Origin: a virus | Lineage: Duplodnaviria; Caudoviricetes | IMG/VR virus record: IMGVR_UViG_3300029319_000057 | Location: 1-56,814 of that record | Reading direction: 5' to 3' (one strand) | Length of the DNA stretch: 56,814 nt | In this document: positions 4,606-52,559 of the stretch, piece after piece | Layout of the letters: every line of letters begins with the position of its first letter | Position numbering within the stretch: position 1 is the first letter of the stretch | Program-made: the position numbers and the translations under genes | The notes under the pieces: generated by a model | Databases searched by the model: none | What the model was told of the DNA's origin: nothing | What the model saw: only the letters and a program-made list of their open reading frames with translations

Positions 4606-4626
4606 AATTAATTGATTTTCAGTTAG

Positions 4627-4700
<74 letters not shown>

Positions 4701-7053: not shown

Positions 7054-7334
7054 AATTCAAAATATTGTATGTATTCATCTCTAGTTACTTCGTCTTCGTC
7101 ATGTTTGTCTAAGTGATTTAAGTATAATTCTCTTAGTATATCTTCTAACATTTCTATACTTGTTGACTTTAATCTCTCATCAAACCAGTCTTGATTCACT
7201 ATTCCATTATGTAATACATAGTTACATAATATTGTTTCATTGTTTACGTCTTCTTCTGTTCCCCAGTAGTCTACGTTTTCTTTGTGTTTTACTATTTCTT
7301 TTTTAGTAAAGTTAATAATTTCTTTAGTGTTCAT
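7050..7334 (-). CDS. Hypothetical acidic protein
   Basis: 94-aa ORF downstream of motif copy 4. Confidence 0.65.
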   Translation of the reverse strand: MNTKEIINFTKKEIVKHKENVDYWGTEEDVNNETILCNYVLHNGIVNQDWFDERLKSTSIEMLEDILRELYLNHLDKHDEDEVTRDEYIQYFEL

Positions 7335-7357
7335 TTTTAATTTTTTATAGTTACATT

Positions 7358-7390
7358 TATATTATCTAAAAAAGTTCGTATTTAGTTTGT
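7358..7390 (-). promoter_or_regulatory. Repeated promoter-like motif, copy 4
   Basis: ACAAA-CTAAATACGA-N9-GATAATATA then AATGTAAC. Confidence 0.7.
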
Positions 7391-7469
7391 AAAAGTATAC
7401 TAATTGTTTAATAGTATAAAAAGTGTTGTAGGTATAATTCGTAACTCTCTTTTGTGTAAAGTGAAAATA

Positions 7470-7516
7470 GTGACGTTAGCTAGTAATATTAGTAATAATA
7501 GTAAGCAAATGTCACA
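7470..7516. promoter_or_regulatory. Operator-like pseudopalindrome, copy B
   Basis: GTGACGTTAGCTA-(AT-rich)-TAAGCAAATGTCACA. Confidence 0.55.
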
Positions 7517-7529
7517 CTGTTTACCGGCA

Positions 7530-7627
7530 TGACGATCTGTCACGTTAGTAACTTTATATGACAATGCGTCATACGGTGAGATTTCCGGCGCAATTTTTGC
7601 TATACGCAATGCTATACATTGCTATAC
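7530..7627. repeat. Two TGAC-N5-GTCA palindromes and three TGCTATAC direct repeats
   Basis: Palindromes at 7530-7542 and 7559-7571; TGCTATAC at 7598, 7610, 7620. Confidence 0.7.
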
Positions 7628-7695
7628 ACCGAAACCCTCCGGTGCCGAGTGATACTTTCCGTATATCTTGCCTTTGGGTTTGGTGATTAGAGAGT

Positions 7696-7998
7696 CTACT
7701 TTACTTCAACTCTTTCTATTACTATGTCTCTTACATTTGAAGGCATTCTAGTACTTTGTGACCAGTAACCTCTTTTCAACCAACAAGGCATTATGTTTAG
7801 TTTAGGTAACATTACTTTTAGTACTTCGTCGTGGTTGTAAGTTACTTTTTCATTTTTGTTATTAACAAAGGTAATGATTTGATTTCTACCGTACCATGAC
7901 TTTCTTACTACAAAGTTTTTTCTTGTGATTGGTGGAAAGATTTCTTTTAACTCTTTCTTACTTAGTTTACTGATTGCTTGATTTAATTTAGTGTTCAT
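7696..7998 (-). CDS. Hypothetical basic protein
   Basis: 100-aa ORF with AT-rich leader. Confidence 0.7.
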   Translation of the reverse strand: MNTKLNQAISKLSKKELKEIFPPITRKNFVVRKSWYGRNQIITFVNNKNEKVTYNHDEVLKVMLPKLNIMPCWLKRGYWSQSTRMPSNVRDIVIERVEVK

Positions 7999-8187
7999 AA
8001 TTTTTAATTTTAATTGTTATTATTTAATTTTATATTTATGTATTATTTTATTTATATCTTTTATATTTGTTAAGTGATAATGACTATGAAATTTTTTATT
8101 ATAATTAATTGTTAAGTCATATAGTTTGAATTCATTTGAATAGTAAATGTTAAATGAGTACATAATTATTTTTTTATTTGTTACACT

Positions 8188-8220
8188 TATATTATCTAAT
8201 TTACTTCGTATTTAGTTTGC
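8188..8220 (-). promoter_or_regulatory. Repeated promoter-like motif, copy 5
   Basis: GCAAA-CTAAATACGA-N9-GATAATATA then AGTGTAAC. Confidence 0.7.
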
Positions 8221-8435
8221 TAAAAAGGTAATATAGTTTTTTCAATATAAGTTAGACCTTTTAGTTTTAGCCAGTGTGATTTACCAGTTTTATATTGGTG
8301 ATTTCCATCTTCATCTTGTCCTAAGTATTTTGTTTTAAAGCCAAATGAGTTAGGAAGATTGCCGACTGTGTAGCCTTGATAGTAAGTGTTATTAACTTTA
8401 ATAACATTGTCTTTTAAGAATTTAATTGTTAACAT
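8220..8435 (-). CDS. Hypothetical protein
   Basis: 71-aa ORF, first gene of leftward block. Confidence 0.65.
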   Translation of the reverse strand: MLTIKFLKDNVIKVNNTYYQGYTVGNLPNSFGFKTKYLGQDEDGNHQYKTGKSHWLKLKGLTYIEKTILPF

Positions 8436-8459
8436 AGTATAAGTTTTAATAGTTACACT

Positions 8460-8492
8460 TATATTATCGAAAGACCTTCGTGTTTAGTCTGC
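8460..8492 (-). promoter_or_regulatory. Repeated promoter-like motif, copy 6
   Basis: GCAGA-CTAAACACGA-N9-GATAATATA then AGTGTAAC. Confidence 0.7.
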
Positions 8493-8753
8493 CAAAAGCA
8501 CGGGTAATATGCTGAGGCAGAAAAAAGCTAAAATATATTTTAAAAATTATAATATACTATACGCTCCGCGTACTGCAATGCAGCTAAAAACCTAGAAACC
8601 TCGACTGTAAAACGTAAAACAGCAGGGGGCTGGCCAAATAAAAACGGCTTTTCCGTAATGCGCAGCGTCGATACGGCAAGGCGTAACCCGTTTCTTCTTT
8701 ATATCTTATAATATGCGCACCTTATAATAAATAATGTTATTATTTATTTATAT

Positions 8754-9427: not shown

Positions 9428-10993
9428 ATGGAATATAATAATCCAAGTGAGATAGTAAAGAATCTGTCTTTCGGGGCAGATGCAAGAGACAAAATAATGC
9501 ACGGGGTTGATAAACTAGCAAATGCGGTTAAATCAACCCTAGGTGCTTCCGGAAAATGCGTTATATACGAAGACGCGTTAGGCCGGCCGGTAATTACAAA
9601 AGACGGTGTAACCGTTGCGGAAAGCGTAGTCTTATATGACCCGGTCGAAAACATAGGGGCAACTCTTATAAAGGAAGCAGCTAGAAATACAGTAAAAGAA
9701 GCCGGAGACGGTACAACAACAGCAACAGTGCTTGCGCAGGCATTGTTGCACCTCGCATATGCAAAAATTAAGGATGAGGGTGTGCGTAATATTAAATTAG
9801 GTATATCCTCTGCCCTTGATAAAGTAACTGAGCACTTACAGGAGGAAGCAATTCCCGTCAAGGATGACATGTTAAGATCCGTAAGTGCTATTAGTTGCAA
9901 TAATGATGAGGCTCTGGGAAATATCATATCGCAAGCCTATTCGAAGGTAGGTAAGGATGGTGTCGTCCTTATGGAAGAGTCTGAGACCCATGACACATAC
10001 GTTAAATTCGTAGAGGGCACACGAATAGAAGGCGGACTCAAATCGCCACATTTTATGACAGATAGAGATAAAGGTAGAGCAGTACTAGACAATCCGTACG
10101 TACTAATAGTTACTTCGCCAATACCTAATATCCGTAAAATACAAAGTGTATTGGAGTTTGTTATTAAAAAGAAAAGGAGCTTATTAATCGTTGCAGGCGT
10201 AGAACAACAACCTATGGCAGCTTTATTAGCTAACAAGGTTAAAGGCAATATAAAAGTTAATGTTGTAGATCTGCCTGGATTCGGACCAACTAAGCAAGAT
10301 ACAGTAGAAGATCTTGCGATATTGACTGGAGCAAAAATAATAGACGAAGAACTTGGTGATGATTTAGATTTAATAAATCCAGATGTACTCGGTGAGGCTA
10401 AGCAAGCTATAACCGATAATACACATACAGTTCTTCAAACTATAGATCAAGGTGAAATTTCTAAAGAACGAGTTAAAAAAGTTGAAAAGAAAATAAAAAA
10501 AGAAAAAGACCCGTACTTTAAGAAGAAGCAACAAGAACGTTTAGCTATGCTAAATGGGCAAGTTGCGATGATAAAAGTCGGCGCCGATTCTAAAATTGAG
10601 CTAAAAGAAAAGAAAGATAGAGTTGAAGACGCTATTTATGCAACTAGAGCAGCATTACAAGAAGGAATAGTATCTGGAGGTGGAATTGCATTATTAGATG
10701 CTCATTATAATATACAGCCTGAAAATGAAGGCGAGCGTATTTTATTAGAAGCTATAAAAGCTCCATATAAAACTATTTTAGAAAATGCTAATTTAGAATA
10801 TAAAGAAACAGGTAAACAAGGGACAGGCGTTAATGTTATATCTGGCAAACAAGTTAATATGATTAAATCCGGTATTATTGATCCTGTGCTTGTAACTAAG
10901 ACAGCGTTAAAAAATGCAGTTAGCGTTGTCAATACTATATTTTCTGCAGATTGTGTAATTTCAAATATTAGAATAGACAATGCAAGCAGTTAA
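9428..10993 (+). CDS. groEL: Phage-encoded chaperonin GroEL
   Basis: ITKDGVTVA, AGDGTTTATVLA, PGFG, KDRVEDA, GIIDP motifs; no GGM tail. Confidence 0.97.
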   Translation: MEYNNPSEIVKNLSFGADARDKIMHGVDKLANAVKSTLGASGKCVIYEDALGRPVITKDGVTVAESVVLYDPVENIGATLIKEAARNTVKEAGDGTTTATVLAQALLHLAYAKIKDEGVRNIKLGISSALDKVTEHLQEEAIPVKDDMLRSVSAISCNNDEALGNIISQAYSKVGKDGVVLMEESETHDTYVKFVEGTRIEGGLKSPHFMTDRDKGRAVLDNPYVLIVTSPIPNIRKIQSVLEFVIKKKRSLLIVAGVEQQPMAALLANKVKGNIKVNVVDLPGFGPTKQDTVEDLAILTGAKIIDEELGDDLDLINPDVLGEAKQAITDNTHTVLQTIDQGEISKERVKKVEKKIKKEKDPYFKKKQQERLAMLNGQVAMIKVGADSKIELKEKKDRVEDAIYATRAALQEGIVSGGGIALLDAHYNIQPENEGERILLEAIKAPYKTILENANLEYKETGKQGTGVNVISGKQVNMIKSGIIDPVLVTKTALKNAVSVVNTIFSADCVISNIRIDNASS

Positions 10994-11237
10994 TTATTAT
11001 ATAGTAATAGAAAAAATAAAAGAAGCGCCGAAGAAAGTAGGCGGCTTAGAACTTACGGAAGATCAAAATAAAGACGTAAGATATGCAAAAGGTAAAATAA
11101 TTTCTGCTGGTGATAAAGTAGAAATGTTAAACACAGGTGATATAGTACATTATGATAGACATGCAGGCCATGGCATACAATGGAAAGATAAGCTGTATTA
11201 TGTATTAAAGCTTGGTGATATAGTTTTAGTTGAATGA
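10980..11237 (+). CDS. groES: Co-chaperonin GroES
   Basis: 85 aa; KVGGLEL mobile loop, GKIISAG..V...GDIVHY; overlaps groEL end. Confidence 0.88.
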   Translation: MQAVNYYIVIEKIKEAPKKVGGLELTEDQNKDVRYAKGKIISAGDKVEMLNTGDIVHYDRHAGHGIQWKDKLYYVLKLGDIVLVE

Positions 11238-12552: not shown

Positions 12553-12831
12553 ATGGCAAAACACTCATACTTTAGAATGAAACACACATTTTCAATGGAC
12601 CCAGTAGGACAAGAAGATGATGATATTAATAATGATGGTAACGTAGATTCTACTGATGATTATTTAAAAAATCGTAGAGAAAAAATTGCACAATCAAAAG
12701 CCGGAATGAAAATGATGCCTCGACCCGCAACATATATGGTTATGGATTCAGTTAGAGATGAAAAAGCAATGGTGAATACAAACAATCTCAAACAAATTAT
12801 ATCTTTTCAAAAAGATAAAAACATAATGTAA
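12553..12831 (+). CDS. Hypothetical protein with EF-hand-like loop
   Basis: DINNDGNVDSTD Dx[DN]xDG motif. Confidence 0.7.
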   Translation: MAKHSYFRMKHTFSMDPVGQEDDDINNDGNVDSTDDYLKNRREKIAQSKAGMKMMPRPATYMVMDSVRDEKAMVNTNNLKQIISFQKDKNIM

Positions 12832-14696
12832 TGGCTTATAAATTAAAAAACGCAAAACTTGAAAATTTTACGAATTTAGCAGGGTCACCCCCTTCTCCAT
12901 TTAGACAAAAAAAGATAAGAATTATAGGCGATGATGATGAGGTAATAACTAGCTCAGATATGTTACAAGGCGATGATTCTGATTTTGATATTGATTATAC
13001 AGGTGCTTCTCAAATTGAACCTATTGTACTATCTAATAAGAAAATAAGTAAAAAAGAACAAAAAAGAATAATATCTGAAGAATCATCTAAACCAAAAATT
13101 AAAAGCACTATAAGGAGCACAGAATTTGATGATATAGCTGATAGAGAAAGATATGATAAAACTATGGCCCCTTTAATAGAAGGTTTTAAAGATGATGTTA
13201 GAGAAGGTATGGGTAAAGCTGCACAGGTTATGATGGACATCGGATTAATGGCTGCCCCAATGCCCGGCGCTGGATTAATTGCAAGAGGAATTGGTGGAGG
13301 TCTTAGATTTGCAAAAAATCTTGTTTCTCCTGTAGCTTCTAAATTGCCAAAGTTAAATTTAAATCTTTCAAGCACTTTTAAACCAACGCCTAATTTAACC
13401 ACTTCTCAGATACAGCTTAATTTACCTGATTCACCTGGTATATTTGGAAGATTTAATCCAAAAACAAAGCAATCAATGTTTGATGCTTTAAACTTATTAG
13501 CCAAAGGCGCTAATGTTAGCAAAAAACAAAGATTAGCAACAATAAAAAGATTAAAAAGCCCAGAAGGTCAAAAAAGATTATACGAACAAGAGTTTGGGTA
13601 TCTACAAGATCAATTTAAAAAATTAGATCTTTCATTAAAAAATAATCCAAAGTCTAGATTTTTTCCTCAAATACGTGCGGCTGAATCCGCTATTAAGCAG
13701 GGTAAAGAACCATTTATACAATATGATATGGGTACAAATATTCTTTTTGATCGAGGAGGAAAATTATTTAAATCGCAAATTCCTAAAGTAGCAAGAGAAA
13801 ATGTTAAGAAAAGAATATTTACAATATCTCAGCCTAATATAAATGAGATGGCGAAGGGAGCAATAAAGGGTGGAAAATTAGATTATAGTAAAGCTTATAA
13901 ATTATTATATGGCGAATCATCACCGCCTAAAGATATTATGTTTGGGAGAGGTGCCACTTTTGGCGGTTTTGGAGGACCTCTTAAAGACACATATTCAATA
14001 CCATCATTTTCAGGAGTTCAAAGAAGTATGAGTTATAATCCAGGAGAATTTGTATTAGGTGCTTCAAAAGTAAGCGGAAAAGGACAATTAAGCTTTATGA
14101 ATCCAAGAACATATCAGCATGAATTACAACATGGCCTTCAGGCTGGGCGTACAACTCCTCTTGATATTTCATTAGCAAAAATAAAACCAGGTTCAATTGT
14201 TACAAAATATAATAGAAGATTAGATGATGCCATTGCTGCAAAACAAAATATAAAAGTTACTGATAAAAACTTTTTTACTACTTATCCAAAAGCTAAAGCA
14301 AGAGTTGCAAAACTTGAATCAAATCCGCCTAGACAGGTAAGTGATTATAATTACTTTAGATATGGGGGCAGCGGGCAATTGGAGCCAAGAGCTTTTGCTG
14401 CTGAATTAAGACAAAGTTTATTAGATAAAGGTTTTATAAAAGATGTTTATCAACCAATAACACCAAACATTTTATCAAGTGCAAAAAAATATTTTGCTAA
14501 AAATCCATTTAGTCAAGGAGCTTTAAAATCTTCAACTGGTAAAACTTTTAATGTCAGCGGAACTAGACTTTTAGATTTTGCGTCAGGATCAAAATCTAAT
14601 CTTGGACAATTATCAAAATTAATGAATAAATTACCAACAGTAACGCTTCCTATTCTCGGCGGTACTACATTGAAATTTTCAGGGGATAGAAAATAA
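12831..14696 (+). CDS. Large basic protein with C-terminal zincin-like motif
   Basis: YQHELQHGLQ and downstream EPRAF; 621 aa. Confidence 0.65.
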   Translation: MAYKLKNAKLENFTNLAGSPPSPFRQKKIRIIGDDDEVITSSDMLQGDDSDFDIDYTGASQIEPIVLSNKKISKKEQKRIISEESSKPKIKSTIRSTEFDDIADRERYDKTMAPLIEGFKDDVREGMGKAAQVMMDIGLMAAPMPGAGLIARGIGGGLRFAKNLVSPVASKLPKLNLNLSSTFKPTPNLTTSQIQLNLPDSPGIFGRFNPKTKQSMFDALNLLAKGANVSKKQRLATIKRLKSPEGQKRLYEQEFGYLQDQFKKLDLSLKNNPKSRFFPQIRAAESAIKQGKEPFIQYDMGTNILFDRGGKLFKSQIPKVARENVKKRIFTISQPNINEMAKGAIKGGKLDYSKAYKLLYGESSPPKDIMFGRGATFGGFGGPLKDTYSIPSFSGVQRSMSYNPGEFVLGASKVSGKGQLSFMNPRTYQHELQHGLQAGRTTPLDISLAKIKPGSIVTKYNRRLDDAIAAKQNIKVTDKNFFTTYPKAKARVAKLESNPPRQVSDYNYFRYGGSGQLEPRAFAAELRQSLLDKGFIKDVYQPITPNILSSAKKYFAKNPFSQGALKSSTGKTFNVSGTRLLDFASGSKSNLGQLSKLMNKLPTVTLPILGGTTLKFSGDRK

Positions 14697-14715
14697 CCAA
14701 ATAAAATTAAATCAA

Positions 14716-15060
14716 ATGAAATTATTAAATCAATTAAAAAAATTAAATCAATTAGAGTTTTTAAATAAAAGACAAATGCATTTTGCATATTGTTTTGGCG
14801 CGTCAATAGTAATTGTGGGCGCTTGGATGAAAATAACACATGTAAGTTTTATGGGCATTACAGGTAATGCAATGCTAACTATAGGTTTATTAACAGAAGC
14901 TTTTATATTTCTTATATCCGCTTTTGAAAAACCAGAACCAACATATGATTGGACTATAGTATATCCAGATTTAAAAAAGAAAAAGAAGGAAGAAAGAAAG
15001 CTTTATGATATAAAAGTAAATGAAGACGAATTAAAAACTTTAAATCGTTTAAAAAAATAA
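14716..15060 (+). CDS. gldL: Truncated GldL/PorL homologue (transmembrane domain only)
   Basis: MHFAYCFGASIVIVGAWMKITH...MLTIGLLTEAFIFLISAFE...YDWTIVYPDL is colinear with the GldL N-terminal two-TM domain. Confidence 0.9.
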   Translation: MKLLNQLKKLNQLEFLNKRQMHFAYCFGASIVIVGAWMKITHVSFMGITGNAMLTIGLLTEAFIFLISAFEKPEPTYDWTIVYPDLKKKKKEERKLYDIKVNEDELKTLNRLKK

Positions 15061-15061
15061 A

Positions 15062-15460
15062 ATGAGTAAAATATTATCTAAACTATTCGGTAACTCTAGC
15101 GGAGCAGTCGTAGACAAGCTAGCTGGTGTTGCTGATAGGTTTATTAGAACAAAAGACGAAAAAGCAGAGTTTGAAAAAGAAATGACTCAAATATTTATAG
15201 AAGCAGAAAAAGAAATGCAAAAGAATGTTACCGAAAGATGGAAAGCTGATTTGGAGCATGGTAATTGGCTTACGCGTTCTGTAAGGCCATTAGTATTAGT
15301 ATTTTTAATTATAAGTACTGTATTAATGGTTTTTATTGATTCTGGCTCTATTGCTTTTCAAGTAGAAGATAAATGGACAGACTTATTGCAAATTGTCCTT
15401 ATAACAGTAATCGGCGCGTATTTTGGAGGGCGCTCGGTTGAAAAATTAAGAAAAAAATAA
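15062..15460 (+). CDS. 3TM (GTA-type) holin-family protein
   Basis: VTERWKAD...WLTRSVRP, two hydrophobic helices, GAYFGGRSVEK end. Confidence 0.8.
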   Translation: MSKILSKLFGNSSGAVVDKLAGVADRFIRTKDEKAEFEKEMTQIFIEAEKEMQKNVTERWKADLEHGNWLTRSVRPLVLVFLIISTVLMVFIDSGSIAFQVEDKWTDLLQIVLITVIGAYFGGRSVEKLRKK

Positions 15461-15802
15461 ATGCCTAGAATAAAGAGTTTTCCAACGGACAGTACTATCA
15501 ATGATAATGATAAGCTTATAGGAACAGATTCTCAAACTGGCAATACTAAAAATTATAAAGTTGGTGATTTGAAAGACCATATTAAATCTGCAAGGCTTCA
15601 TATACACCATCAAAATAATGCTTCAACAACTTGGGTAATAAATCATAATAAAGATACATTTCCAAGTGTAAGCATAAAATTTTCAAGCAGCGACGAAATT
15701 TATGAAAACGTAGGTGCGTTCGCTGGAATAACATACAACAACAGTAATACTATAACAATAACTTTAGCGGCTGCGGAAAGCGGTTACGCGTATTTAAACT
15801 AA
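15461..15802 (+). CDS. Hypothetical tail-associated protein
   Basis: DKLIGTD..TGNTKNY and H.Q..ASTTWVINHN...PSV motifs common in tail-fibre modules. Confidence 0.65.
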   Translation: MPRIKSFPTDSTINDNDKLIGTDSQTGNTKNYKVGDLKDHIKSARLHIHHQNNASTTWVINHNKDTFPSVSIKFSSSDEIYENVGAFAGITYNNSNTITITLAAAESGYAYLN

Positions 15803-15808
15803 AAAAAA

Positions 15809-17983
15809 ATGGCAATACCAATTTTAAATCATTTAGACTTAAGAAGTGCATCGGAGCTGCAAAACGCAATTCTGCATAAAACAACTGAGGGCTCTGCATC
15901 AAACGTAGAGGGTAAAATAATATATGACACCGGAACTGACACGATAAAATTTTATAATGGGTCATCATGGATTAATTTAGATGGTTCGGGAGATATTGGT
16001 GCTGTTACAGCCGGAGATGGTTTAACAGGCGGTGGTAGCTCAGGAACAGTATCATTAGCAGTAAATGTTGATGATTCTTCAATAGAAATTAATTCTGATA
16101 CAGTAAGAGTAAAAGCATCAGGTATAACAAATGCGATGTTAGCTGGTTCTATATCACCTACTAAATTATCTACAATTACAACTGCGAATAAAGTTGCATT
16201 ATCTTCATTAGATATTGACGGCGGAACAGATGTAGGTGAAGCGTTAGTAGATGCTGATCTAATGATTGTTGATAATGGTGCCGGTGGCACTAATAGAAAA
16301 GCAACAATGTCTAGGTTAAAAACCTATATGCAAAATAATTTAACATTCACAACCAATACCAATACAGTAGATATGGGTGATGGTTTTGTGATAGAAGATG
16401 GAGACGGTACTGAGGTAACAGTAACTGAAAATAAACAAGTTAAGTTTGTAGAAGGTGGTGGTATTGACATTAACTTTACAGATACCGACAGTGGAGCAGA
16501 TGGAGATGAATTTGATTTAACATTTACAGTTCAAACACTTAATCAAGATACAACTGGAAATGCAGCTACTGCAACAGCATTAGAAACAGCAAGAAACTTA
16601 TCATTAACTGGCGATGTTACTGCTACTTTATCTAGCTTTGACGGTTCTGGCAATGTTAGTGCTGCTGCAACAATAGCATCAGGTGCGGTTCATCATAGTA
16701 TGTTAAGTGATGATATTATTTCAGGACAAGGTGCATTAACATCAGGTTTAGCGAGCACAGATGAACTTATGATTAGCGACGCTGGTACTGTTAAAAGAAT
16801 GGATGTAAGTGTGATACAATCATACATGCAAAATAATTTAACATTTTCTGATAATAATGATGTTAATAACGCGAACTTATTAACAGCTTTAGCAAACTTA
16901 GAATCTACAAGTGGTGCCGCAAATGAAAATATTACAATAGGTACTGATAGTGGCGATACAATAGTAATAACTGGTAACTTACAAGTTTCAGGTACAACTA
17001 CAACAGTCAACTCAACTACGGTAAATCTTAATGACCATAACATAGTGCTTGACAGCGGCAACAGTACATCAGCGGTTGTTGATGGGGCTGGTATTACACT
17101 TGAGGGTGGTTCCGGTGATGATGCTACATTTACTTATAATGCTTCAACAAACGCATTTGATTTTAAATTAGGTAGTTCATTTGAAGATATTAAAGCAGCA
17201 AAAGTTACAGCTACTAGTTTAGATATTTCAGGAAATGTTGATATTGATGGCACTTTAGAAGCTGACGCAATAACAGTTAATGGTACTGCTTTAAATACAG
17301 TTATAGCAGGTGTAACGGTTTCAAATGCTACATTAGCAGCAACAACAACGGTTACAAACTCTACAGCTAATACAGCTTTTCCAATTGTATTTCATGATGA
17401 ATCAAACGGTTTATTAGATGATACAGGTACATTAACATATAATCCAAGTTCTGGTAAATTAGTTGCTCCTGGTGAAATAGAAGCGGCTAGTTTAGATATA
17501 TCTGGTAATGTTGATGTTGATGGAACACTCGAAACAGATGCTTTAACAATTAACGGAACTACTTCTGTAGCGTTTACAAGTAGTGATCATTCAAAGTTAG
17601 ATGGTATAGCCTCTAGTGCAACTGCTAATGCTGCTGCATCTCAGAGTGAAGTTCAAAATGGTACTAACACTACTAAATTTGTAACACCTGATACTTTAGC
17701 ATCTAGATCTGTGCATGCTACAATTGATGTATCTAATTCAACTTTTACATCAAATTTATATGCTGAAATTGCACATAATTTAAGCACTGAAGATATTATT
17801 GTTCAGTTATTTGATGCAACCACAAAGGAAACAGTTTATGCGGATGTTGCTAGAACAGATAAAGATGGTAGCAGTTCAAATGATGAAATTAAAATTACTT
17901 TTGCTTCAGCGCCTTCAAATGACATAGAAGTTTTAATCACTTCGCTTAGAGGCTCAACTGCTGGGACTGTAGCTTATTCATAA
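15809..17983 (+). CDS. Putative tail fibre protein
   Basis: 724 aa G/S/T/D/A-rich; internal repeats SLDISGNVD.DGTLE.DA.T.NGT (x2), YMQNNLTF (x2). Confidence 0.75.
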   Translation: MAIPILNHLDLRSASELQNAILHKTTEGSASNVEGKIIYDTGTDTIKFYNGSSWINLDGSGDIGAVTAGDGLTGGGSSGTVSLAVNVDDSSIEINSDTVRVKASGITNAMLAGSISPTKLSTITTANKVALSSLDIDGGTDVGEALVDADLMIVDNGAGGTNRKATMSRLKTYMQNNLTFTTNTNTVDMGDGFVIEDGDGTEVTVTENKQVKFVEGGGIDINFTDTDSGADGDEFDLTFTVQTLNQDTTGNAATATALETARNLSLTGDVTATLSSFDGSGNVSAAATIASGAVHHSMLSDDIISGQGALTSGLASTDELMISDAGTVKRMDVSVIQSYMQNNLTFSDNNDVNNANLLTALANLESTSGAANENITIGTDSGDTIVITGNLQVSGTTTTVNSTTVNLNDHNIVLDSGNSTSAVVDGAGITLEGGSGDDATFTYNASTNAFDFKLGSSFEDIKAAKVTATSLDISGNVDIDGTLEADAITVNGTALNTVIAGVTVSNATLAATTTVTNSTANTAFPIVFHDESNGLLDDTGTLTYNPSSGKLVAPGEIEAASLDISGNVDVDGTLETDALTINGTTSVAFTSSDHSKLDGIASSATANAAASQSEVQNGTNTTKFVTPDTLASRSVHATIDVSNSTFTSNLYAEIAHNLSTEDIIVQLFDATTKETVYADVARTDKDGSSSNDEIKITFASAPSNDIEVLITSLRGSTAGTVAYS

Positions 17984-22791: not shown

Positions 22792-23017
22792 CGCAGTTAA
22801 GGAATTAATAAAAGTTGCAAAAGAGCCTATAGTTGAAACAGAAGATGATGTTTCTGCAGATAGATTAAAAAATGCCGCCGCAACTAAAAAGTTAGCTATA
22901 TTTGATGCGTTTGAAATATTAAATCGTATTGAAGAAGAAAAAGCATTATTAGAAAATAAACCTTTGGAAAATAAAGATGATACTTTTAAAGGTTTTGCAG
23001 AAAGGAGATCTAAATAA
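22745..23017 (+). CDS. Putative terminase small subunit
   Basis: 90-aa helical ORF coupled to terL; positional inference. Confidence 0.5.
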   Translation: MNVKETKKNIIQAGHSAVKELIKVAKEPIVETEDDVSADRLKNAAATKKLAIFDAFEILNRIEEEKALLENKPLENKDDTFKGFAERRSK

Positions 23018-25236
23018 TGTATAAACAAAATTTATATAAGATAATACAACCAGTTAGATTAAATACTGTTAAAAGATTAAATAAATCTAAGAAGTGGCAA
23101 TATGGATATAATAAAGAACACGATATTGTTGTTATATCTAAAACAGGAATGATTGGTGATATTTATGAAATACAAAATTTAAAAATAGCATTGCCTAAAC
23201 AACCTAATAAAGTTTTTAAAGGTAATGATAAATGGGAGGTTCAAGAATATCCTAAAGAGCTAAATAAAATAAAAACAATATTTGATTGGCGTAGTTTGCC
23301 TTCAGATTTTAAAAATAATTGGTATGCGTATATTGACTCAGAATTTACTAAGCGGGAACAAGGCTTTTGGTTTTATAACAAAGGCATTCCTACTTATATT
23401 ACTGGGACTCATTATATGTACTTGCAGTGGACCAAAATTGATATTGGGAAACCAGAATTTAGAGAAGCAAATAGATTATTCTTTATTTTCTGGGAAGCTT
23501 GTAAAGCAGATTCACGATCCTATGGGATGTGTTATCTTAAGAACAGGCGTTCCGGGTTTTCTTTCATGGCCTCAGGAGAGGTGGTTAACTTGGCAACCAT
23601 ATCAAGTGACTCCAGGTATGGTATATTATCTAAGTCCGGTGCTGACGCCAAAAAAATGTTTACAGATAAGGTGGTTCCCATCTCTGTCAATTACCCATTC
23701 TTTTTCAAGCCGATACAGGACGGAATGGACAGGCCCAAGACTGAACTTGCATACCGTGTACCAGCCAGTAAATTTACCAGAAGAAAACTCACAGCCAACG
23801 AAGCCGTGGAAGACATACAGGGATTGGACACCACCATCGACTGGAAGAACACCGGTGATAATTCCTACGATGGGGAGAAGCTTGCCCTCCTCATACATGA
23901 CGAAGCCGGTAAATGGGAGAGGCCAGAAAACATTCTCAACAACTGGAGGGTCACGAAAACCACATTAAGATTAGGTAGTAGAATTATAGGTAAGTGTATG
24001 ATGGGTTCTACTAGCAACTCAGCAGATAAAGGAGGTGATAATTTTAAAAAATTATATAACGATTCAGATGTTACAAAAAGAAACCGCAATGGACAGACTC
24101 GCTCGGGATTATATAGTTTGTTCATACCTATGGAATGGAACTTCGAGGGATTCATTGATTCTTATGGCCTACCTGTATTCGATACACCCGAAGCAATTAT
24201 TAAAGACGCATACGGCGAAGATATTGACACCGGGGTTATTGAGCATTGGGAAAATGAAGTCGAAGGCTTAAAGTCCGACCAAGACGCTTTAAATGAGTTT
24301 TATAGACAATTTCCAAGAACAGAAGAACATGCGTTTAGAGACGAAACAAAAAATAGTATATTTAATCTAGCAAAAATTTACGAACAAATTGATTACAATG
24401 ATGAAGTCGCAAATCTGTCACAAGTTACCGTTGGCAGTTTTACGTGGCAAAATGGAATTAAAGACACGAAAGTCCAGTTTACGCCAAATCCTAACGGAAG
24501 GTTTAAAGTCAGCTGGGTTCCGAATGTAAGATTACAAAATAATATTATAACTAAAAATGGTATTAAATATCCAGGTAATGAGCATATGGGTGCTTTTGGC
24601 TGTGATAGTTATGATATATCTGGAACTACAGATGGGCAAGGATCTAAAGGCTCGTTGCATGGTTTAACTAAATTTAGCATGGAAGAAGCTCCAGCAAATA
24701 TGTTTTTTTTAGAATATATAGCTAGACCGCAAACTGCAGAAATGTTTTTTGAAGATGTGTTAATGGCATTAGTATTTTATGGTATGCCATTACTTGCAGA
24801 AAATAATAAACCTAGATTATTATATTATTTAAAACGTAGAGGTTATAGAGGTTATTCAATGAATAGACCTGATAAAGCTAGAAATAAATTATCTGTTACA
24901 GAAAAAGAGATAGGTGGTATACCTAATTCAAGTGAAGATATAAGACAAGCTCACGCCGCTGCAATTGAAACATATATAAATGATTATGTTGGTATTATAG
25001 GAGATGGGCAATATGGAAATTTATATTTTAATAGAACATTAAATGATTGGGCTAAATTTGACATAAATAAAAGAACAAAATTTGATGCTGCTATAAGCTC
25101 AGGGTTAGCAATAATGGGATGTAATAAAAATAAATACAGACCAAATGCTGAAAGAATAAAATCAAAAGTTAATATCAATTTTTCAAAATACGAAAATAAA
25201 GGAACTATATCAAAAATAATAAAAAATTATGGCTGA
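23017..25236 (+). CDS. terL: Terminase large subunit
   Basis: Walker A-like LKNRRSGFS, Walker B LLIHDEAGKW, motif III GST, nuclease GCDSYD...LAENN. Confidence 0.93.
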   Translation: MYKQNLYKIIQPVRLNTVKRLNKSKKWQYGYNKEHDIVVISKTGMIGDIYEIQNLKIALPKQPNKVFKGNDKWEVQEYPKELNKIKTIFDWRSLPSDFKNNWYAYIDSEFTKREQGFWFYNKGIPTYITGTHYMYLQWTKIDIGKPEFREANRLFFIFWEACKADSRSYGMCYLKNRRSGFSFMASGEVVNLATISSDSRYGILSKSGADAKKMFTDKVVPISVNYPFFFKPIQDGMDRPKTELAYRVPASKFTRRKLTANEAVEDIQGLDTTIDWKNTGDNSYDGEKLALLIHDEAGKWERPENILNNWRVTKTTLRLGSRIIGKCMMGSTSNSADKGGDNFKKLYNDSDVTKRNRNGQTRSGLYSLFIPMEWNFEGFIDSYGLPVFDTPEAIIKDAYGEDIDTGVIEHWENEVEGLKSDQDALNEFYRQFPRTEEHAFRDETKNSIFNLAKIYEQIDYNDEVANLSQVTVGSFTWQNGIKDTKVQFTPNPNGRFKVSWVPNVRLQNNIITKNGIKYPGNEHMGAFGCDSYDISGTTDGQGSKGSLHGLTKFSMEEAPANMFFLEYIARPQTAEMFFEDVLMALVFYGMPLLAENNKPRLLYYLKRRGYRGYSMNRPDKARNKLSVTEKEIGGIPNSSEDIRQAHAAAIETYINDYVGIIGDGQYGNLYFNRTLNDWAKFDINKRTKFDAAISSGLAIMGCNKNKYRPNAERIKSKVNINFSKYENKGTISKIIKNYG

Positions 25237-27655
25237 ATCAGTTATGAAAAACTACTTTCCAAGTCAAGCTGTTAGTGACGATGAGAAATTATCAATGCAG
25301 TATGGCTTAGAAGTTGCTAAAGCTATAGAAAATGAATGGTTTAAAAAATCTTCTGGTATAAACAGATATTTACAAAATCAAAATCGTTTTCATAAATTAA
25401 GATTGTATGCTAGAGGCGAACAGTCAACACAAAAATATAAAGACGAATTATCTATTAATGGTGATTTATCATATTTAAATTTAGATTGGAAGCCTGTACC
25501 TATTATACCAAAATTTGTTGATATAGTTGTAAATGGTATTGCTGAAAGAACATATGATATTAAGGCATTTTCCCAAGATCCTCATGGTGTAAATCAGAGA
25601 ACTGAGTATATGAAAAGAATGTTAGTTGATATGCAAACGCAAGATACAACACAATATATACAAGAAAATTTTGGAATTAATTTACAAAGCACACCACAAG
25701 ATCAACTTCCAGCAAATAATGAAGAATTGCAGCTTCATATGCAATTAAATTATAAGCAAGCAATTGAAATTGCAGAAGAGCAAGCAATTGAAACAGTGTT
25801 TAATTTAAACAACTATGAATTAATAAAGAAAAGATTTTATTATGATTTAGCTGTATTAGGAATGGGCTGTGTTAAAAATACATTTAATTTATCAGAAGGA
25901 ATAAAAATAGAATATGTTGACCCTGCTAATATAGTGTATTCACATTCAGATTCGCCATACTTTGATGATATATATTATGTTGGTGAAATGAAAACTATAA
26001 ACTTAGTAGACCTTAAAAAAGAATTTCCAAACTTAACTGACGAAGATTTAAAATCAATAACTAAAAATGGAGGTTCTAGTTATAATTTGTTTAATAGATA
26101 TACATCTAGGCATGATAAAACAGATAATAACGCAATAGAAGTTTTATATTTTAATTATAAAACATATATGAATGAGGTTTATAAAGTTAAAGAAACTGCA
26201 ACAGGCGCTGAAAAAATTATTAGAAAAACAGACGCTTTTAATCCTCCACCTGATTCTAAAGGTTTAAGATTTGAAAGAATAGCTAGAAATGTGGAGGTGC
26301 TTTATGAAGGTGTATATATACCAGGCTCAAAACAACTTTTAAAATGGAATCTTTGCGAAAACATGTTAAGAGAAAAAAGCGATTCTAGCAAAGTAAAAAT
26401 GAATTATTCTATAGTTGCGCCTAGAATATATAATGGATCTGTTGAATCTTTAGTTAGCAGAATAACTAGTTTTGCGGACATGATTCAATTAACGCATTTA
26501 AAAATACAGCAGATTCTTTCAAGAATGGTTCCTGATGGTGTTTATGTAGATGCCGATGGTTTAGCTGAAATAGACTTAGGAAATGGTAGTAATTATAATC
26601 CACAAGAAGCATTAAATATGTTTTTCCAAACTGGTAGTATAATTGGTAGATCATTTACTTCAGATGGAGAACTAAATCCGGGAAAAATTCCTATTCAAGA
26701 AATAAATAATTCCGCTGGCACAAATAAATTAGCTGCATTAATAAGTACTTATAACTATTATATGCAAATGATTAGAGATGCTACTGGTTTAAATGAAGCA
26801 AGAGACGCAAGTACACCAGATAAAAATGCCTTAGTTGGAATTCAAAAATTAGCAGCCGCAAATAGTAACACTGCTACAAGACACATATTACAAAGTGGAT
26901 TATTTTTAACTGCAGAAACTGCTGAAAAAATATCATTAAGAATATCAGATGTTTTAGAATATTCTCCTACGGCAACTGCTTTTATACAATCTATAGGTTC
27001 TCATAATGTGGCAACTTTAGATGAATTATCAGAATTGCATCTGCATGATTTTGGTATATTTTTAGAATTAGAGCCAGATGAAGAAGAAAAACAAATGTTA
27101 GAAAATAATATCCAAGTAGCTATTGCACAAAATAATATTGAACTAGAAGACGCTATTGATTTAAGACAAATTAAAAATGTTAAATTAGCTAATCAACTTT
27201 TAAAATTAAGAAGAAAGAAAAAGCAGCAACAAGATCAATTAATGCAACAGCAAAATATACAGGCACAAGCACAAGCTAATGCGCAAGCACAACAAGTTGC
27301 TGCTGCTGCTGAGGTTCAAAAGCAACAATCACTTACTCAAAGTAAAATACAATTAGAATCAGCTAAAAGTAATTTAGAAATGCAAAAATTAATGGCTGAA
27401 GCTAATTTGAAAAAAGAATTAATGACTTTAGAATTTCAAATGAATATGCAGCTGCATAGTGCTAAAAATAATATTGAAAAAGAAAAAATTAAAGAAAAAG
27501 AAGATAGAAAAGACGAGCGAACAAAAATTCAAGCAAGTCAACAAAGTGAACTTATAAATCAACGTAAAAATAACTTACCTCCAAAATCTTTTGAATCTGC
27601 AGGTAATGATATTTTAAGCGGTGATTTTAACTTAGGTGTTTTTGAACCTAGGTAA
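25229..27655 (+). CDS. Portal protein
   Basis: 808 aa after terL; PIIPKFVDIVV motif, Q-rich C-terminal coiled-coil barrel. Confidence 0.88.
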   Translation: MAESVMKNYFPSQAVSDDEKLSMQYGLEVAKAIENEWFKKSSGINRYLQNQNRFHKLRLYARGEQSTQKYKDELSINGDLSYLNLDWKPVPIIPKFVDIVVNGIAERTYDIKAFSQDPHGVNQRTEYMKRMLVDMQTQDTTQYIQENFGINLQSTPQDQLPANNEELQLHMQLNYKQAIEIAEEQAIETVFNLNNYELIKKRFYYDLAVLGMGCVKNTFNLSEGIKIEYVDPANIVYSHSDSPYFDDIYYVGEMKTINLVDLKKEFPNLTDEDLKSITKNGGSSYNLFNRYTSRHDKTDNNAIEVLYFNYKTYMNEVYKVKETATGAEKIIRKTDAFNPPPDSKGLRFERIARNVEVLYEGVYIPGSKQLLKWNLCENMLREKSDSSKVKMNYSIVAPRIYNGSVESLVSRITSFADMIQLTHLKIQQILSRMVPDGVYVDADGLAEIDLGNGSNYNPQEALNMFFQTGSIIGRSFTSDGELNPGKIPIQEINNSAGTNKLAALISTYNYYMQMIRDATGLNEARDASTPDKNALVGIQKLAAANSNTATRHILQSGLFLTAETAEKISLRISDVLEYSPTATAFIQSIGSHNVATLDELSELHLHDFGIFLELEPDEEEKQMLENNIQVAIAQNNIELEDAIDLRQIKNVKLANQLLKLRRKKKQQQDQLMQQQNIQAQAQANAQAQQVAAAAEVQKQQSLTQSKIQLESAKSNLEMQKLMAEANLKKELMTLEFQMNMQLHSAKNNIEKEKIKEKEDRKDERTKIQASQQSELINQRKNNLPPKSFESAGNDILSGDFNLGVFEPR

Positions 27656-51936: not shown

Positions 51937-52108
51937 CGAAAAAGCAATAGCTACTTTAAAAGAAGTACAAAAAAGATATAAGTTAACTGTACAAGAAATT
52001 GAGGATGTTGCCTCAGCAATGAAAGAAGTTGCAAATCAAATAGAAGATATACCTAGTGCATTAAAAGGTGAGGCTCGTAAAGGAAGAAAAAATGGAAAGA
52101 ATAAGTAA
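51869..52108 (+). CDS. Hypothetical coiled-coil protein
   Basis: 79-aa ORF upstream of endolysin. Confidence 0.6.
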   Translation: MWKLTKKYLKDIWVLLWSKTEVDEKAIATLKEVQKRYKLTVQEIEDVASAMKEVANQIEDIPSALKGEARKGRKNGKNK

Positions 52109-52559
52109 AAATATAAGCTATAAAGAAGGTGTGTATAGCATAACTGCTAATAGATTAGGATTAGAAAATAAACCCAACGAAGAACAATTAGCTAACATGA
52201 AAACAATAGCTGAAAAAGTTTTTCAACCTTTAAGAAACTGGGTTGGCGGACCAATAAAAATTAATTCATTTTTTCGTTCACCTGAACTTAATAAAAAAAT
52301 TGGCGGGAGTAAAACCAGCCAACATTGTAAAGGTCAAGCAATTGATTTTGATGATAATTTTGGGCATAAAACAAATGCAGAAATGTTTATGTACATTAGA
52401 GAAAATTTAGATTTTGATCAAATGATATGGGAATTCGGAGATGATAACAATCCTAATTGGGTGCATGTAAGTTATGTATCACCTGAAGCAAATAGAAAAA
52501 GATGTTTAAAAGCATATAGAAATCCTGGTTCAAGAAGCACTAAATATAAAGTAATATAA
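52092..52559 (+). CDS. Peptidase M15A-family endolysin
   Basis: INSFFRSPELNKKIGG...SQHCKGQAID...WVHVS zinc ligands. Confidence 0.9.
   Translation: MERISKNISYKEGVYSITANRLGLENKPNEEQLANMKTIAEKVFQPLRNWVGGPIKINSFFRSPELNKKIGGSKTSQHCKGQAIDFDDNFGHKTNAEMFMYIRENLDFDQMIWEFGDDNNPNWVHVSYVSPEANRKRCLKAYRNPGSRSTKYKVI

Follow-up and report, generated by a model that had tools for sequence, protein, structure and literature searches.

The 56,814-base IMG/VR virus record IMGVR_UViG_3300029319_000057 (hereafter the window, meaning the whole stretch analyzed; its completeness is estimated at ~90%) carries a gene for a 114-amino-acid (aa) protein that is homologous to GldL, the ring subunit of the proton-driven motor for type IX secretion and gliding in Bacteroidota, and that ends shortly after the membrane part. 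We infer a Flavobacteriaceae host for this ~57 kb podophage. Our preferred explanation, to which we assign a probability of roughly 0.45, is that the truncated GldL takes over the secretion and gliding motor of the host through the partner subunit GldM and probably uncouples it. Judged by the published roles of the parts of GldL, as given in the available portions of those sources, the short protein keeps the part that binds GldM and carries protons and is without the part that binds a regulator. Differently trimmed GldL proteins are encoded by other phages, in two classes beside a complete GldM, and this group of phages appears to tamper with or rebuild the motor of its host.

The short GldL protein and its cellular counterparts

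The 114-aa protein was compared with profile and structure databases. It matched the Pfam GldL_N model (PF22827) at 95.1 bits (cut-off 24; E 2.8e-27; residues 24–88 on profile positions 1–61 of 62) and the NCBIfam PorL/GldL model TIGR03513 at 97.6 bits (cut-off 68.3; E 1.1e-27), and no PHROG family matched it. A phmmer search of PDB chains returned as best match 6ys8_G, the 215-aa GldL of Flavobacterium johnsoniae (E 2.9e-22), and over the solved GldL/PorL chains (6YS8, 7SAU, 7SAZ, 7SAT, and 7SAX) the E values ranged from 2.9e-22 to 8e-08. Residues 15–91 of the phage protein align with residues 3–79 of 6ys8_G without gaps, with ~42 of the 77 positions identical by hand count on the alignment. 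On the strength of these matches, the open reading frame (ORF) is confirmed as a GldL homolog, far beyond chance.

The background on the motor given here is taken from the available parts of the papers cited. Five GldL hairpins surround two GldM helices, with GldL ordered only over residues 3–62; E49 forms a salt bridge with R9 of GldM, Y13 is functionally important, and two invariant GldL loop residues, a Lys and a His, touch the periplasmic domain of GldM (10.1101/2020.05.11.089193). The loop residues are printed in that paper as K17 and H20; the chain numbering of 6YS8 gives K27 and H30. E49 is required for secretion and E59 for adhesin movement only, GldL associates with GldM via the transmembrane (TM) helices of both and not through the soluble domains alone, and the 5:2 architecture is common to GldLM and other ion-driven motors (PMC8986121). 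A "cage" formed by GldL residues E64–L74 can be deleted with only a small gliding defect (10.1101/2022.01.28.478170), and the phosphorylated form of PorX binds the GldL cytoplasmic domain (PMC10951265).

With an offset of 12 residues to F. johnsoniae GldL, Y25, K39, H42, E61, and E71 of the phage protein correspond to Y13, K27, H30, E49, and E59. Both TM helices and the short periplasmic loop are present by the 6ys8_G alignment and by hydropathy (Table 1). Y25 lies within the first helix and K39 at its periplasmic end, followed by H42; E61, the equivalent of the proton-binding Glu, lies within the second helix, and E71 follows it. The equivalents of Y13, K27, H30, E49, and E59 are all present in each of the seven sequences of the class to which the window protein belongs (class A; classes A to D are our names for the short GldL forms of phages), as is the equivalent of W67 of the cage; in the window the cage keeps both its D and its W, and position E73 is Asp. 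The window protein retains 27 of the 31 positions with at least 95% conservation among 101 cellular GldLs, the departures being G14C, L25W, A54L, and E73D, the first three at positions that are invariant or nearly so among the cellular proteins. Identity of the core to these 101 proteins is 52–66% (median 59%).

The ~130-residue C-terminal cytoplasmic domain, which contains the PorX-binding part, is missing. The TIGR03513 alignment is confined to profile positions 1–74 of 247, and in an alignment with 24 cellular GldLs the phage protein has no cytoplasmic counterpart beyond a possible first helix. The charged tail may be a remnant of the first cytoplasmic helix of GldL by its placement in MAFFT, and a hidden Markov model (HMM) comparison of the seven class A tails with that helix gave ~1 bit, which is not significant. 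An initial annotation, made from the letters of this DNA alone, had named the protein GldL while allowing that a profile search might find no such match, had given the correspondence of Y25, K39, E61, and E71 to Y13, K27, E49, and E59, and had described the long cytoplasmic domain as absent; the strong GldL_N match, the ungapped 6ys8_G alignment, and the confined TIGR03513 alignment together with that of the 24 GldLs bear these points out. Its description of the protein as reduced to the membrane domain is right as to the truncation and needs amending in two respects, since the cage is kept and a 20-residue N-terminal extension is present.

The length of GldL in cells was then examined. The 80 best genome hits to the short protein are from Flavobacteriaceae or from unclassified Bacteroidota metagenome-assembled genomes, at 47–60% identity, and 78 of the 80 frames encode 170–219 aa, the other two being explained by a contig end and a script artefact. 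All 23 cellular loci found in a scan of metagenome contigs (described below) encode GldLs of 176–218 aa. In the family to which one such locus belongs, a GldL_N match is present in 296 of 301 genomes, and the 150 frames listed are of 181–278 aa. All cellular GldLs examined keep the cytoplasmic domain. The additional GldL_N matches in five genomes that were checked are weak, partial paralogs. Weak second matches of this kind (E 1e-06 to 1e-07) were seen at G025:C1:1725298-1725771 and G226:C1:1113396-1113866, two per frame of 181–218 aa, and these could be distant paralogs with a doubled hairpin.

The phage protein thus shares with cellular GldL/PorL, the ring of the GldL5–GldM2 motor, two TM helices, the loop Lys and His, the Glu of the second helix, the Y13 and E59 equivalents, and the cage, and it differs in length (114 against 170–219 aa), in the missing cytoplasmic domain, and in the extra 20 residues at the N-terminus. 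Cellular gldL lies in a gldK-L-M-N cluster before gldM; the window gene has no gldK, gldM, or gldN neighbor and is followed by a holin-like gene. No GldM was found in the window by tblastn, by phmmer, or with PF12081 at E up to 10. As the cytoplasmic domain and the gldKLMN context are both absent, the protein was classed as a truncated phage variant and not as an equivalent of GldL.

Short GldL forms in other phages

A word-indexed search of ~5.8 billion proteins resulted in six close short relatives, of 99–114 aa. An exhaustive profile search resulted in 961 proteins at E up to 0.001 and a single cluster representative at E up to 1e-30, so class A is one tight cluster. The exact window protein occurs on 38 contigs, of which the window contig is the longest, and variants occur on 9, 36, 40, 18, and more contigs, for a total of 192 class A sightings over four 90% clusters. 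Scanning JGI and ENA metagenome contigs yielded 41 loci, which were split by frame length into 3 of class A, 5 of class B (149 aa), 10 of class C (87 aa), and the 23 cellular loci mentioned above. Two of the class A contigs (L003 and L004) are divergent, with 74–76% protein identity. Scans of IMG/VR seeded with class A gave no further class A copies, in a search from which records near the window may have been left out. The 50%-cluster representative of class A, the 99-aa P0002, is without 15 residues of the second TM helix and occurs on one 1.7 kb contig, as an assembly error or a broken copy. Three short GldL_N proteins from metagenomes (P0128, P0145, and P0087; 104–145 aa) have non-canonical tails and are maybe more phage forms.

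Selection was estimated from the ratio of nonsynonymous to synonymous substitution rates (dN/dS), the figures resting on 3 to 6 sequences per class. For class A, the pairwise values between the window and L003 and L004 (three DNA sequences only) are 0.13–0.22, at dS up to 0.84; by part, on the same three sequences, they are 0.11–0.20 in the tail and 0.31–0.60 in the N-terminal extension. Within class B the values are 0.14–0.21 for GldL and 0.10–0.15 for GldM, and within class C they are 0.01–0.12 at dS up to 1.16. By these ratios, class A is under purifying selection in its core and tail. Neutral decay and occurrence in a single genome, which the initial annotation had named as findings that would speak against a function, therefore do not apply, given the dN/dS values and the many contigs. 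That the gene is a functionless passenger, a fragment of a captured host gene, is accordingly disfavored and would be extremely improbable: its absence from most relatives fits such a view, and against this stand the purifying selection on core and tail at dS values as high as those given above for classes A and C, the intact frames on ~190 contigs, and the four separately shaped forms in kindred phages.

In classes A, B, and D the short GldL lies in the interval between GroEL (left) and the large terminase subunit TerL (right), which served as landmarks. Class B was examined at four freshwater loci (L027, L028, L031, and L032), where the gene directly after that of the 149-aa GldL encodes a GldM of 511 aa that has all of the four Pfam GldM domains and retains R9 and Y17. 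Compared with the window, the class B loci have GroEL at 54%, TerL at 73% (L032), and portal at 59% identity. Class D was found by scanning IMG/VR with the class B GldM, and comprises two contigs (L229 and L230) that are identical at the GldL and GldM pair. Its gene order is GroEL, a GldL_N protein of 133 aa (E 8.1e-26), a GldM of 530 aa with four domains, a GroES-like protein, TerL, and portal; TerL and portal (L230) are 73% and 54% identical to those of the window, and the GldM is 35% identical to that of class B and ~45% identical to GldMs of marine Flavobacteriaceae. The class B and D pairs thus resemble the window in their podophage backbone, the GroEL-to-terminase interval, the TM hairpin, and the trimmed cytoplasmic part, and differ from it in carrying a four-domain GldM of their own and in what else of GldL they keep. 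Class C has the 87-aa GldL alone, with TerL 29% and portal 25.5% identical to those of the window. No GldM lies near the class C GldL in the DNA examined at 10 loci, and one class C genome in IMG/VR (65,922 bases, with direct terminal repeats) has no GldM_1st match.

The four classes have kept different parts of GldL. Class A has the cage and a short tail, class C has a tail that aligns with the first cytoplasmic helix of GldL, and classes B and D have kept the C-terminal half but neither the cage nor the first helix, so that only the TM hairpin with K27, H30, and E49 is common to all four. E59 is present in classes A, B, and D and is Leu in class C, in which Y13 is replaced by Thr. Classes A and C further depart at positions where all 101 cellular GldLs agree, namely G14 (Cys or Ser), L25 (Trp), and S56 (Ala or Tyr), and classes B and D retain these three residues. 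S56 is changed in six of seven class A and all five class C sequences, the window protein being the one that retains it. Class C was found through the seed AWMKITH, so the W25-M26 that it has in common with class A is in part due to ascertainment, and a scan with this seed may miss classes with other motifs.

These shared departures at cellular invariants hint at a changed function, and the gene, which is rare among kindred phages, lies among accessory genes. Both observations would suit another role in the inner membrane, in which the hairpin is reused without GldM, for example in superinfection exclusion by blocking DNA entry or as a decoy for a host factor. We consider such a role quite unlikely. 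The best-kept residues, K27, H30, and E49, have contact with GldM as their only role known from the available parts of the literature, GldM stands beside the gene in two classes, and no defense-system model of PADLOC matched any of the five proteins scanned.

The origins of the phage forms were examined in a maximum-likelihood tree of a 71-column core, with 103 different sequences after merging of identical ones. Class A and one long-branched 140-aa metagenome protein are split from 95 other rows (support 98/100), class B is nested in a 13-row clade of freshwater Flavobacterium type (96/98), and class C is on a very long branch. Core identity to the nearest cellular GldL is 84–87% for class B, 61–67% for class A, and 57–61% for class C. 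In this tree and by these identities, class B is placed as a recent capture from a freshwater Flavobacterium-like GldL. On so few columns (71), we read the whole tentatively as at least two captures of GldL, one of them recent (class B).

Genes upstream of the holin-like gene and elsewhere in the window

In the window, the stop codon of the GldL gene (TAA, 15058–15060) is followed by one base (A, 15061) and the ATG of the next gene at 15062, as the initial annotation had noted in calling that gene a 3TM holin. The family assignment holds: the 132-aa product is a putative holin by its match to phrog_3427 and to PF11351, the latter at 28.4 bits and so just above the cut-off of 24.8. The number of helices does not follow from it, because "3TM" belongs to the family name and a Kyte–Doolittle scan gave two hydrophobic segments (74–92 and 108–126). 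The holin-like gene directly follows GldL in all three class A contigs, with a gap of 0 nucleotides (nt) in L003 and L004, where the protein is 90–92% identical to that of the window. It is a hugely abundant protein in marine metagenomes, with 7,996 of 8,000 scored candidates at E up to 1e-05, and the 120 matches listed are 91–100% identical, on contigs as long as 66 kb. It follows that phages of this group are very common, though the GldL gene is rare among them.

To place the GldL gene among these relatives, 80 IMG/VR loci with a holin 53–90% identical to that of the window were searched for frames, with a procedure that recovered all five positive controls. None of the 80 has a GldL-type frame within 3 kb of the holin. 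The ORF upstream of the holin is unrelated to that of the window in 74 loci, matches another window ORF (of 97 aa) in 2, and is missing in 4, and in the directly adjacent related loci listed the spacing to the holin is likewise tight, at −8 to +11 nt. The gene for the short GldL is therefore accessory and occupies a slot of variable content. Over ~3 kb upstream of the holin at these loci (L123–L202) the contents vary by phage and include Lys- and Glu-rich proteins of 300–680 aa; read from sequence by eye, one has a motif like that of M15 peptidases (L139), two are lipoprotein-like (L144 and L145), and two are capsid-decoration-like (L130 and L136). The protein encoded upstream of GldL in the window, of 621 aa with a HELQH motif, matched nothing in Pfam, PHROG, or PADLOC; it is 38.6% identical over 635 columns to its counterpart in L003, has only a 29-residue match in L004, and has no relative upstream of the holin in the 80 loci. 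One metagenome contig (run X6) seems to join position 14729 to 15061 and so to bypass the GldL ORF, supported by 31 nt on its shorter arm, at 85% similarity; this could be a GldL-less variant or a mis-join and is too weak to use.

None of the 87 GenBank phages with a related terminase is among the matches of a phage collection to the short GldL or to GldM. A tblastn search of that collection with the class A and class C GldLs and the class B GldM gave a single match, MT839621.1 (a 10.5 kb "Bacteriophage sp." from human feces), in which GldL-like (43%) and GldM-like (32%) matches are adjacent at 7066–8653; this record is probably a piece of cellular porL-porM that was entered as phage. A complete relative of 60.8 kb, with a TerL 64% identical to that of the window, has ~20 small genes, including an M15 peptidase, in its GroEL-to-terminase interval and no GldL.

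The position beside the holin raises the question of lysis timing, in which short GldL rings, with or without GldM, would leak protons, lower the membrane potential, and so set when the holin fires. In favor of this are the spacing of 1 nt in the window and 0 nt in the other two class A contigs, the retained proton-path residues, and the lysis-related look of the gene upstream of the holin in L139, L144, and L145 as read by eye. No holin, however, lies by the short GldL at the class B, C, or D loci; the slot is variable, is without GldL in all 80 loci, and shows tight spacing to the holin there too, so that the adjacency may indicate no more than a site at which insertions are tolerated. The endolysin candidate of the window is 37 kb away from the holin-like gene, and the ring subunit of flagellar stators is not known to conduct protons in the absence of its partner. 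We consider a role in lysis timing very unlikely, and the leak of the proton motive force (PMF) that the initial annotation had offered as tuning lysis is weakened insofar as it was based on the adjacency, which is a feature of class A only, at a hypervariable site.

The host and the remaining gene content were assessed from the rest of the window. Of the 87 GenBank records with a related terminase, 68 are from phages of Flavobacterium, 15 of Cellulophaga, 2 of Tenacibaculum, and 1 of Maribacter, and these hosts, together with the best cellular GldL hits, make a host in the Bacteroidota likely, as the initial annotation had also concluded. The stretch 12800–16000 is present in 20 listed sequencing runs from 8 studies, nearly all labeled marine metagenome, of which 10 contain at least half of the sampled words from this stretch and one is possibly the source sample; phages of the carrier group occur commonly in metagenomes from both marine and fresh water. 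Apart from the features of Table 1, ribonucleotide reductase subunits are encoded on the minus strand, and some of the structural proteins are very large. The 85-aa ORF after GroEL (10980–11237) is probably a second co-chaperonin by its position and by homologs in related loci, a single tRNA gene, for tRNA-Met (CAT), lies on the minus strand at 4626–4700, and of two giant ORFs, that at 33122–37885 (1587 aa) matches the C-terminal domain of the crAss-phage muzzle below the cut-off (24.7 against 27 bits) and that at 40365–47396 (2343 aa) has no Pfam match. A scan of the window for sigma-70 promoters and terminators gave no more hits than shuffled sequences, using a model that does not cover Bacteroidota promoters. 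The sole RNA library with matches gave one identical 171-nt contig over 15362–15532 and a spurious 35-nt piece.

Table 1. Positions of the short GldL gene, its parts, other window genes, and the GldL and GldM pairs of related phages
Feature	Position	Strand	Evidence or remark
Short GldL gene (class A), 114 aa and stop	14716..15060	+	ORF; GldL_N, TIGR03513, and 6ys8_G matches
N-terminal extension, residues 1–20, basic, Leu-rich	14716..14775	+	Absent from F. johnsoniae GldL; conserved in 7/7 class A
TM helix 1, ~residues 22–41	14779..14838	+	6ys8_G alignment; hydropathy segment 23–41
TM helix 2, ~residues 52–70	14869..14925	+	6ys8_G alignment; hydropathy segment 52–70
Cage region, residues 74–86 (EPTYDWTIVYPDL)	14935..14973	+	Equivalent of F. 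johnsoniae E64–L74
Charged tail, residues 87–114	14974..15057	+	12 K/R and 7 D/E within last 30 residues
Holin-like protein, 132 aa	15062..15460	+	phrog_3427 "holin" E 1.3e-24; PF11351 GTA_holin_3TM E 2.6e-06
Upstream protein of the variable slot, 621 aa, HELQH motif	12831..14696	+	Stop 19 nt before GldL
Phage GroEL	9428..10993	+	phrog_5725 E 6.5e-137; homologs in L003, L031, L032, L230
GroES-like protein, 195 aa	22204-22791		phrog_13932
Terminase large subunit (TerL)	23017..25236	+	phrog_6681 E 6.6e-166
Portal	25229-27655		54–59% identical in classes B and D, 25.5% in class C
Endolysin candidate (Peptidase_M15_3)	52068..52559	+	phrog_894 E 4.7e-30; PF08291 E 1.4e-14
Class B GldL and GldM pair	L032:9968-12001, L031:9968-12001, L027:2904-4935, L028:2255-4283		Freshwater relatives
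Class D GldL and GldM pair	L230:7557-9593 (same in L229)		133 aa and 530 aa

Possible effect on the host motor

The proposed takeover would proceed as follows. Expression of the GldL gene would go together with that of the closely spaced structural and lysis genes beside it, and the protein would enter the inner membrane of the host. Rings of the short GldL, either alone or mixed with host GldL, would assemble around the GldM dimer of the host via the membrane helices. The hybrid motor units would still conduct protons and would escape holding or regulation from the cytoplasm, which would give the phage control of the type IX secretion and gliding motor. The likeliest outcome would be a loss of productive output, through uncoupling or a dominant-negative effect, and this direction is the least certain step; it is favored because the domain that is missing from the phage forms was present in every cellular GldL examined. 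As a pay-off, export and movement of the surface adhesins on which flavobacterial phages depend would stop, leaving a motionless surface with less adhesin and receptor, the infected cell would be shielded from further phages, and the progeny would be spared sticking. Such a pay-off fits the way in which flavobacteria escape phages by breaking gldK, gldL, gldM, gldN, or sprA, as reported in the available parts of two studies: phage-resistant isolates of F. psychrophilum had mutations in gldK (4), gldM (5), gldL (1), and sprA (5) (PMC9804748), and isolates of F. columnare had mutations in gldG, gldM, and gldN (10.1101/2020.10.02.323337).

Several observations weigh against this proposal. With no GldM in the window, all of it depends on the GldM of the host. 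The retention of every proton-path residue, including Y13 and E59, is unneeded for an inert plug and fits a working or a free-running motor equally well. The classes with a full GldM of their own under purifying selection point to the assembly of complete motors by those phages at least, and a GldM adjoining the short GldL in kindred phages makes a plain "poison subunit" less certain. A need for the cytoplasmic domain in generating torque is our own inference, and no experiment deleting that domain was found in the literature searched. The GldL gene is dispensable, being absent from all 80 holin loci and from the 87 GenBank relatives, and the RNA contig, which reaches only the end of the holin gene, gives no evidence either way on GldL expression.

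Some of the same observations would be accounted for by a working stator, in which the short GldL replaces or supplements the host subunit, together with host GldM or, in classes B and D, phage GldM, and sustains secretion and gliding or makes them constitutive without docking of PorX. In that case, the gene would be an auxiliary host-function gene that supports nutrient-acquiring secretion or movement while host synthesis fails. The equivalents of Y13, K27, H30, E49, and E59 are all present in classes A, B, and D, and E59 is needed for adhesin movement only in the available part of the source (PMC8986121). The small gliding defect upon cage deletion, as far as that report is available (10.1101/2022.01.28.478170), indicates that some trimming is tolerated, and two classes have a four-domain GldM, that of class B with R9 and Y17 and with the low dN/dS given above. 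On the other hand, since cellular GldLs all keep the cytoplasmic domain, a shortened form is unlikely to cover the full function; class C is without Y13 and E59; classes A and C are changed at the invariant G14 and L25; and a search with TIGR04183 and TIGR04131 gave no type IX cargo signal in the window, nor was one found in 10 neighboring proteins of the class B and D loci. We hold a working stator to be somewhat unlikely, and no less likely than that because Y13 and E59 are retained and a full GldM is present in classes B and D.

A broader possibility, which we regard as doubtful, is that podophages of Flavobacteriia have captured and trimmed the motor more than once and run proton-driven rotary units of their own, plugged into the outer-membrane secretion rings of the host and controlled by the phage. 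It is with the same doubt that two lineages would have units made of complete GldL–GldM pairs, while the window phage and the 87-aa lineage would combine phage GldL and host GldM in hybrids.

Compared with these readings, takeover and probable uncoupling of the host motor by the truncated GldL remains our preferred one, at the probability given at the outset. The motor has its pentameric ring around a dimeric axle, and its acidic residue within the membrane, in common with MotAB, ExbBD, and TolQR. We know of no phage-encoded ring subunit for any of these three. In the literature searched, which did not extend to subscription journals and supplements, no description of a phage-borne GldL or GldM motor subunit was found; the homology as such is already on record, as JGI automatic annotation names some of these proteins GldL or GldM. 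The type IX cargo genes of "Cryophage" (PMC7468147), in the available part of that paper, are likewise a case of a Bacteroidota phage exploiting type IX secretion of its host; those genes encode secreted cargo with C-terminal sorting domains, whereas the window gene encodes a motor subunit.

GldLM belongs to the small number of ion-driven rotary motors known. The phages supply four natural truncations of GldL, all under selection, that can be used in F. johnsoniae genetics and in the cryo-electron microscopy protocol of 6YS8. If phages do run rotary units of their own, these would be the first virus-encoded ion-driven motor, and the truncations would map which parts of GldL serve what. If the truncated GldL takes over the host motor as proposed, this would be a target of host takeover that is undescribed in the literature searched. 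As loss of the motor is a main route to phage resistance in fish-pathogenic flavobacteria, according to the available parts of the studies on these bacteria, a phage gene that acts on it bears on superinfection, on receptor display, and on phage therapy in aquaculture.

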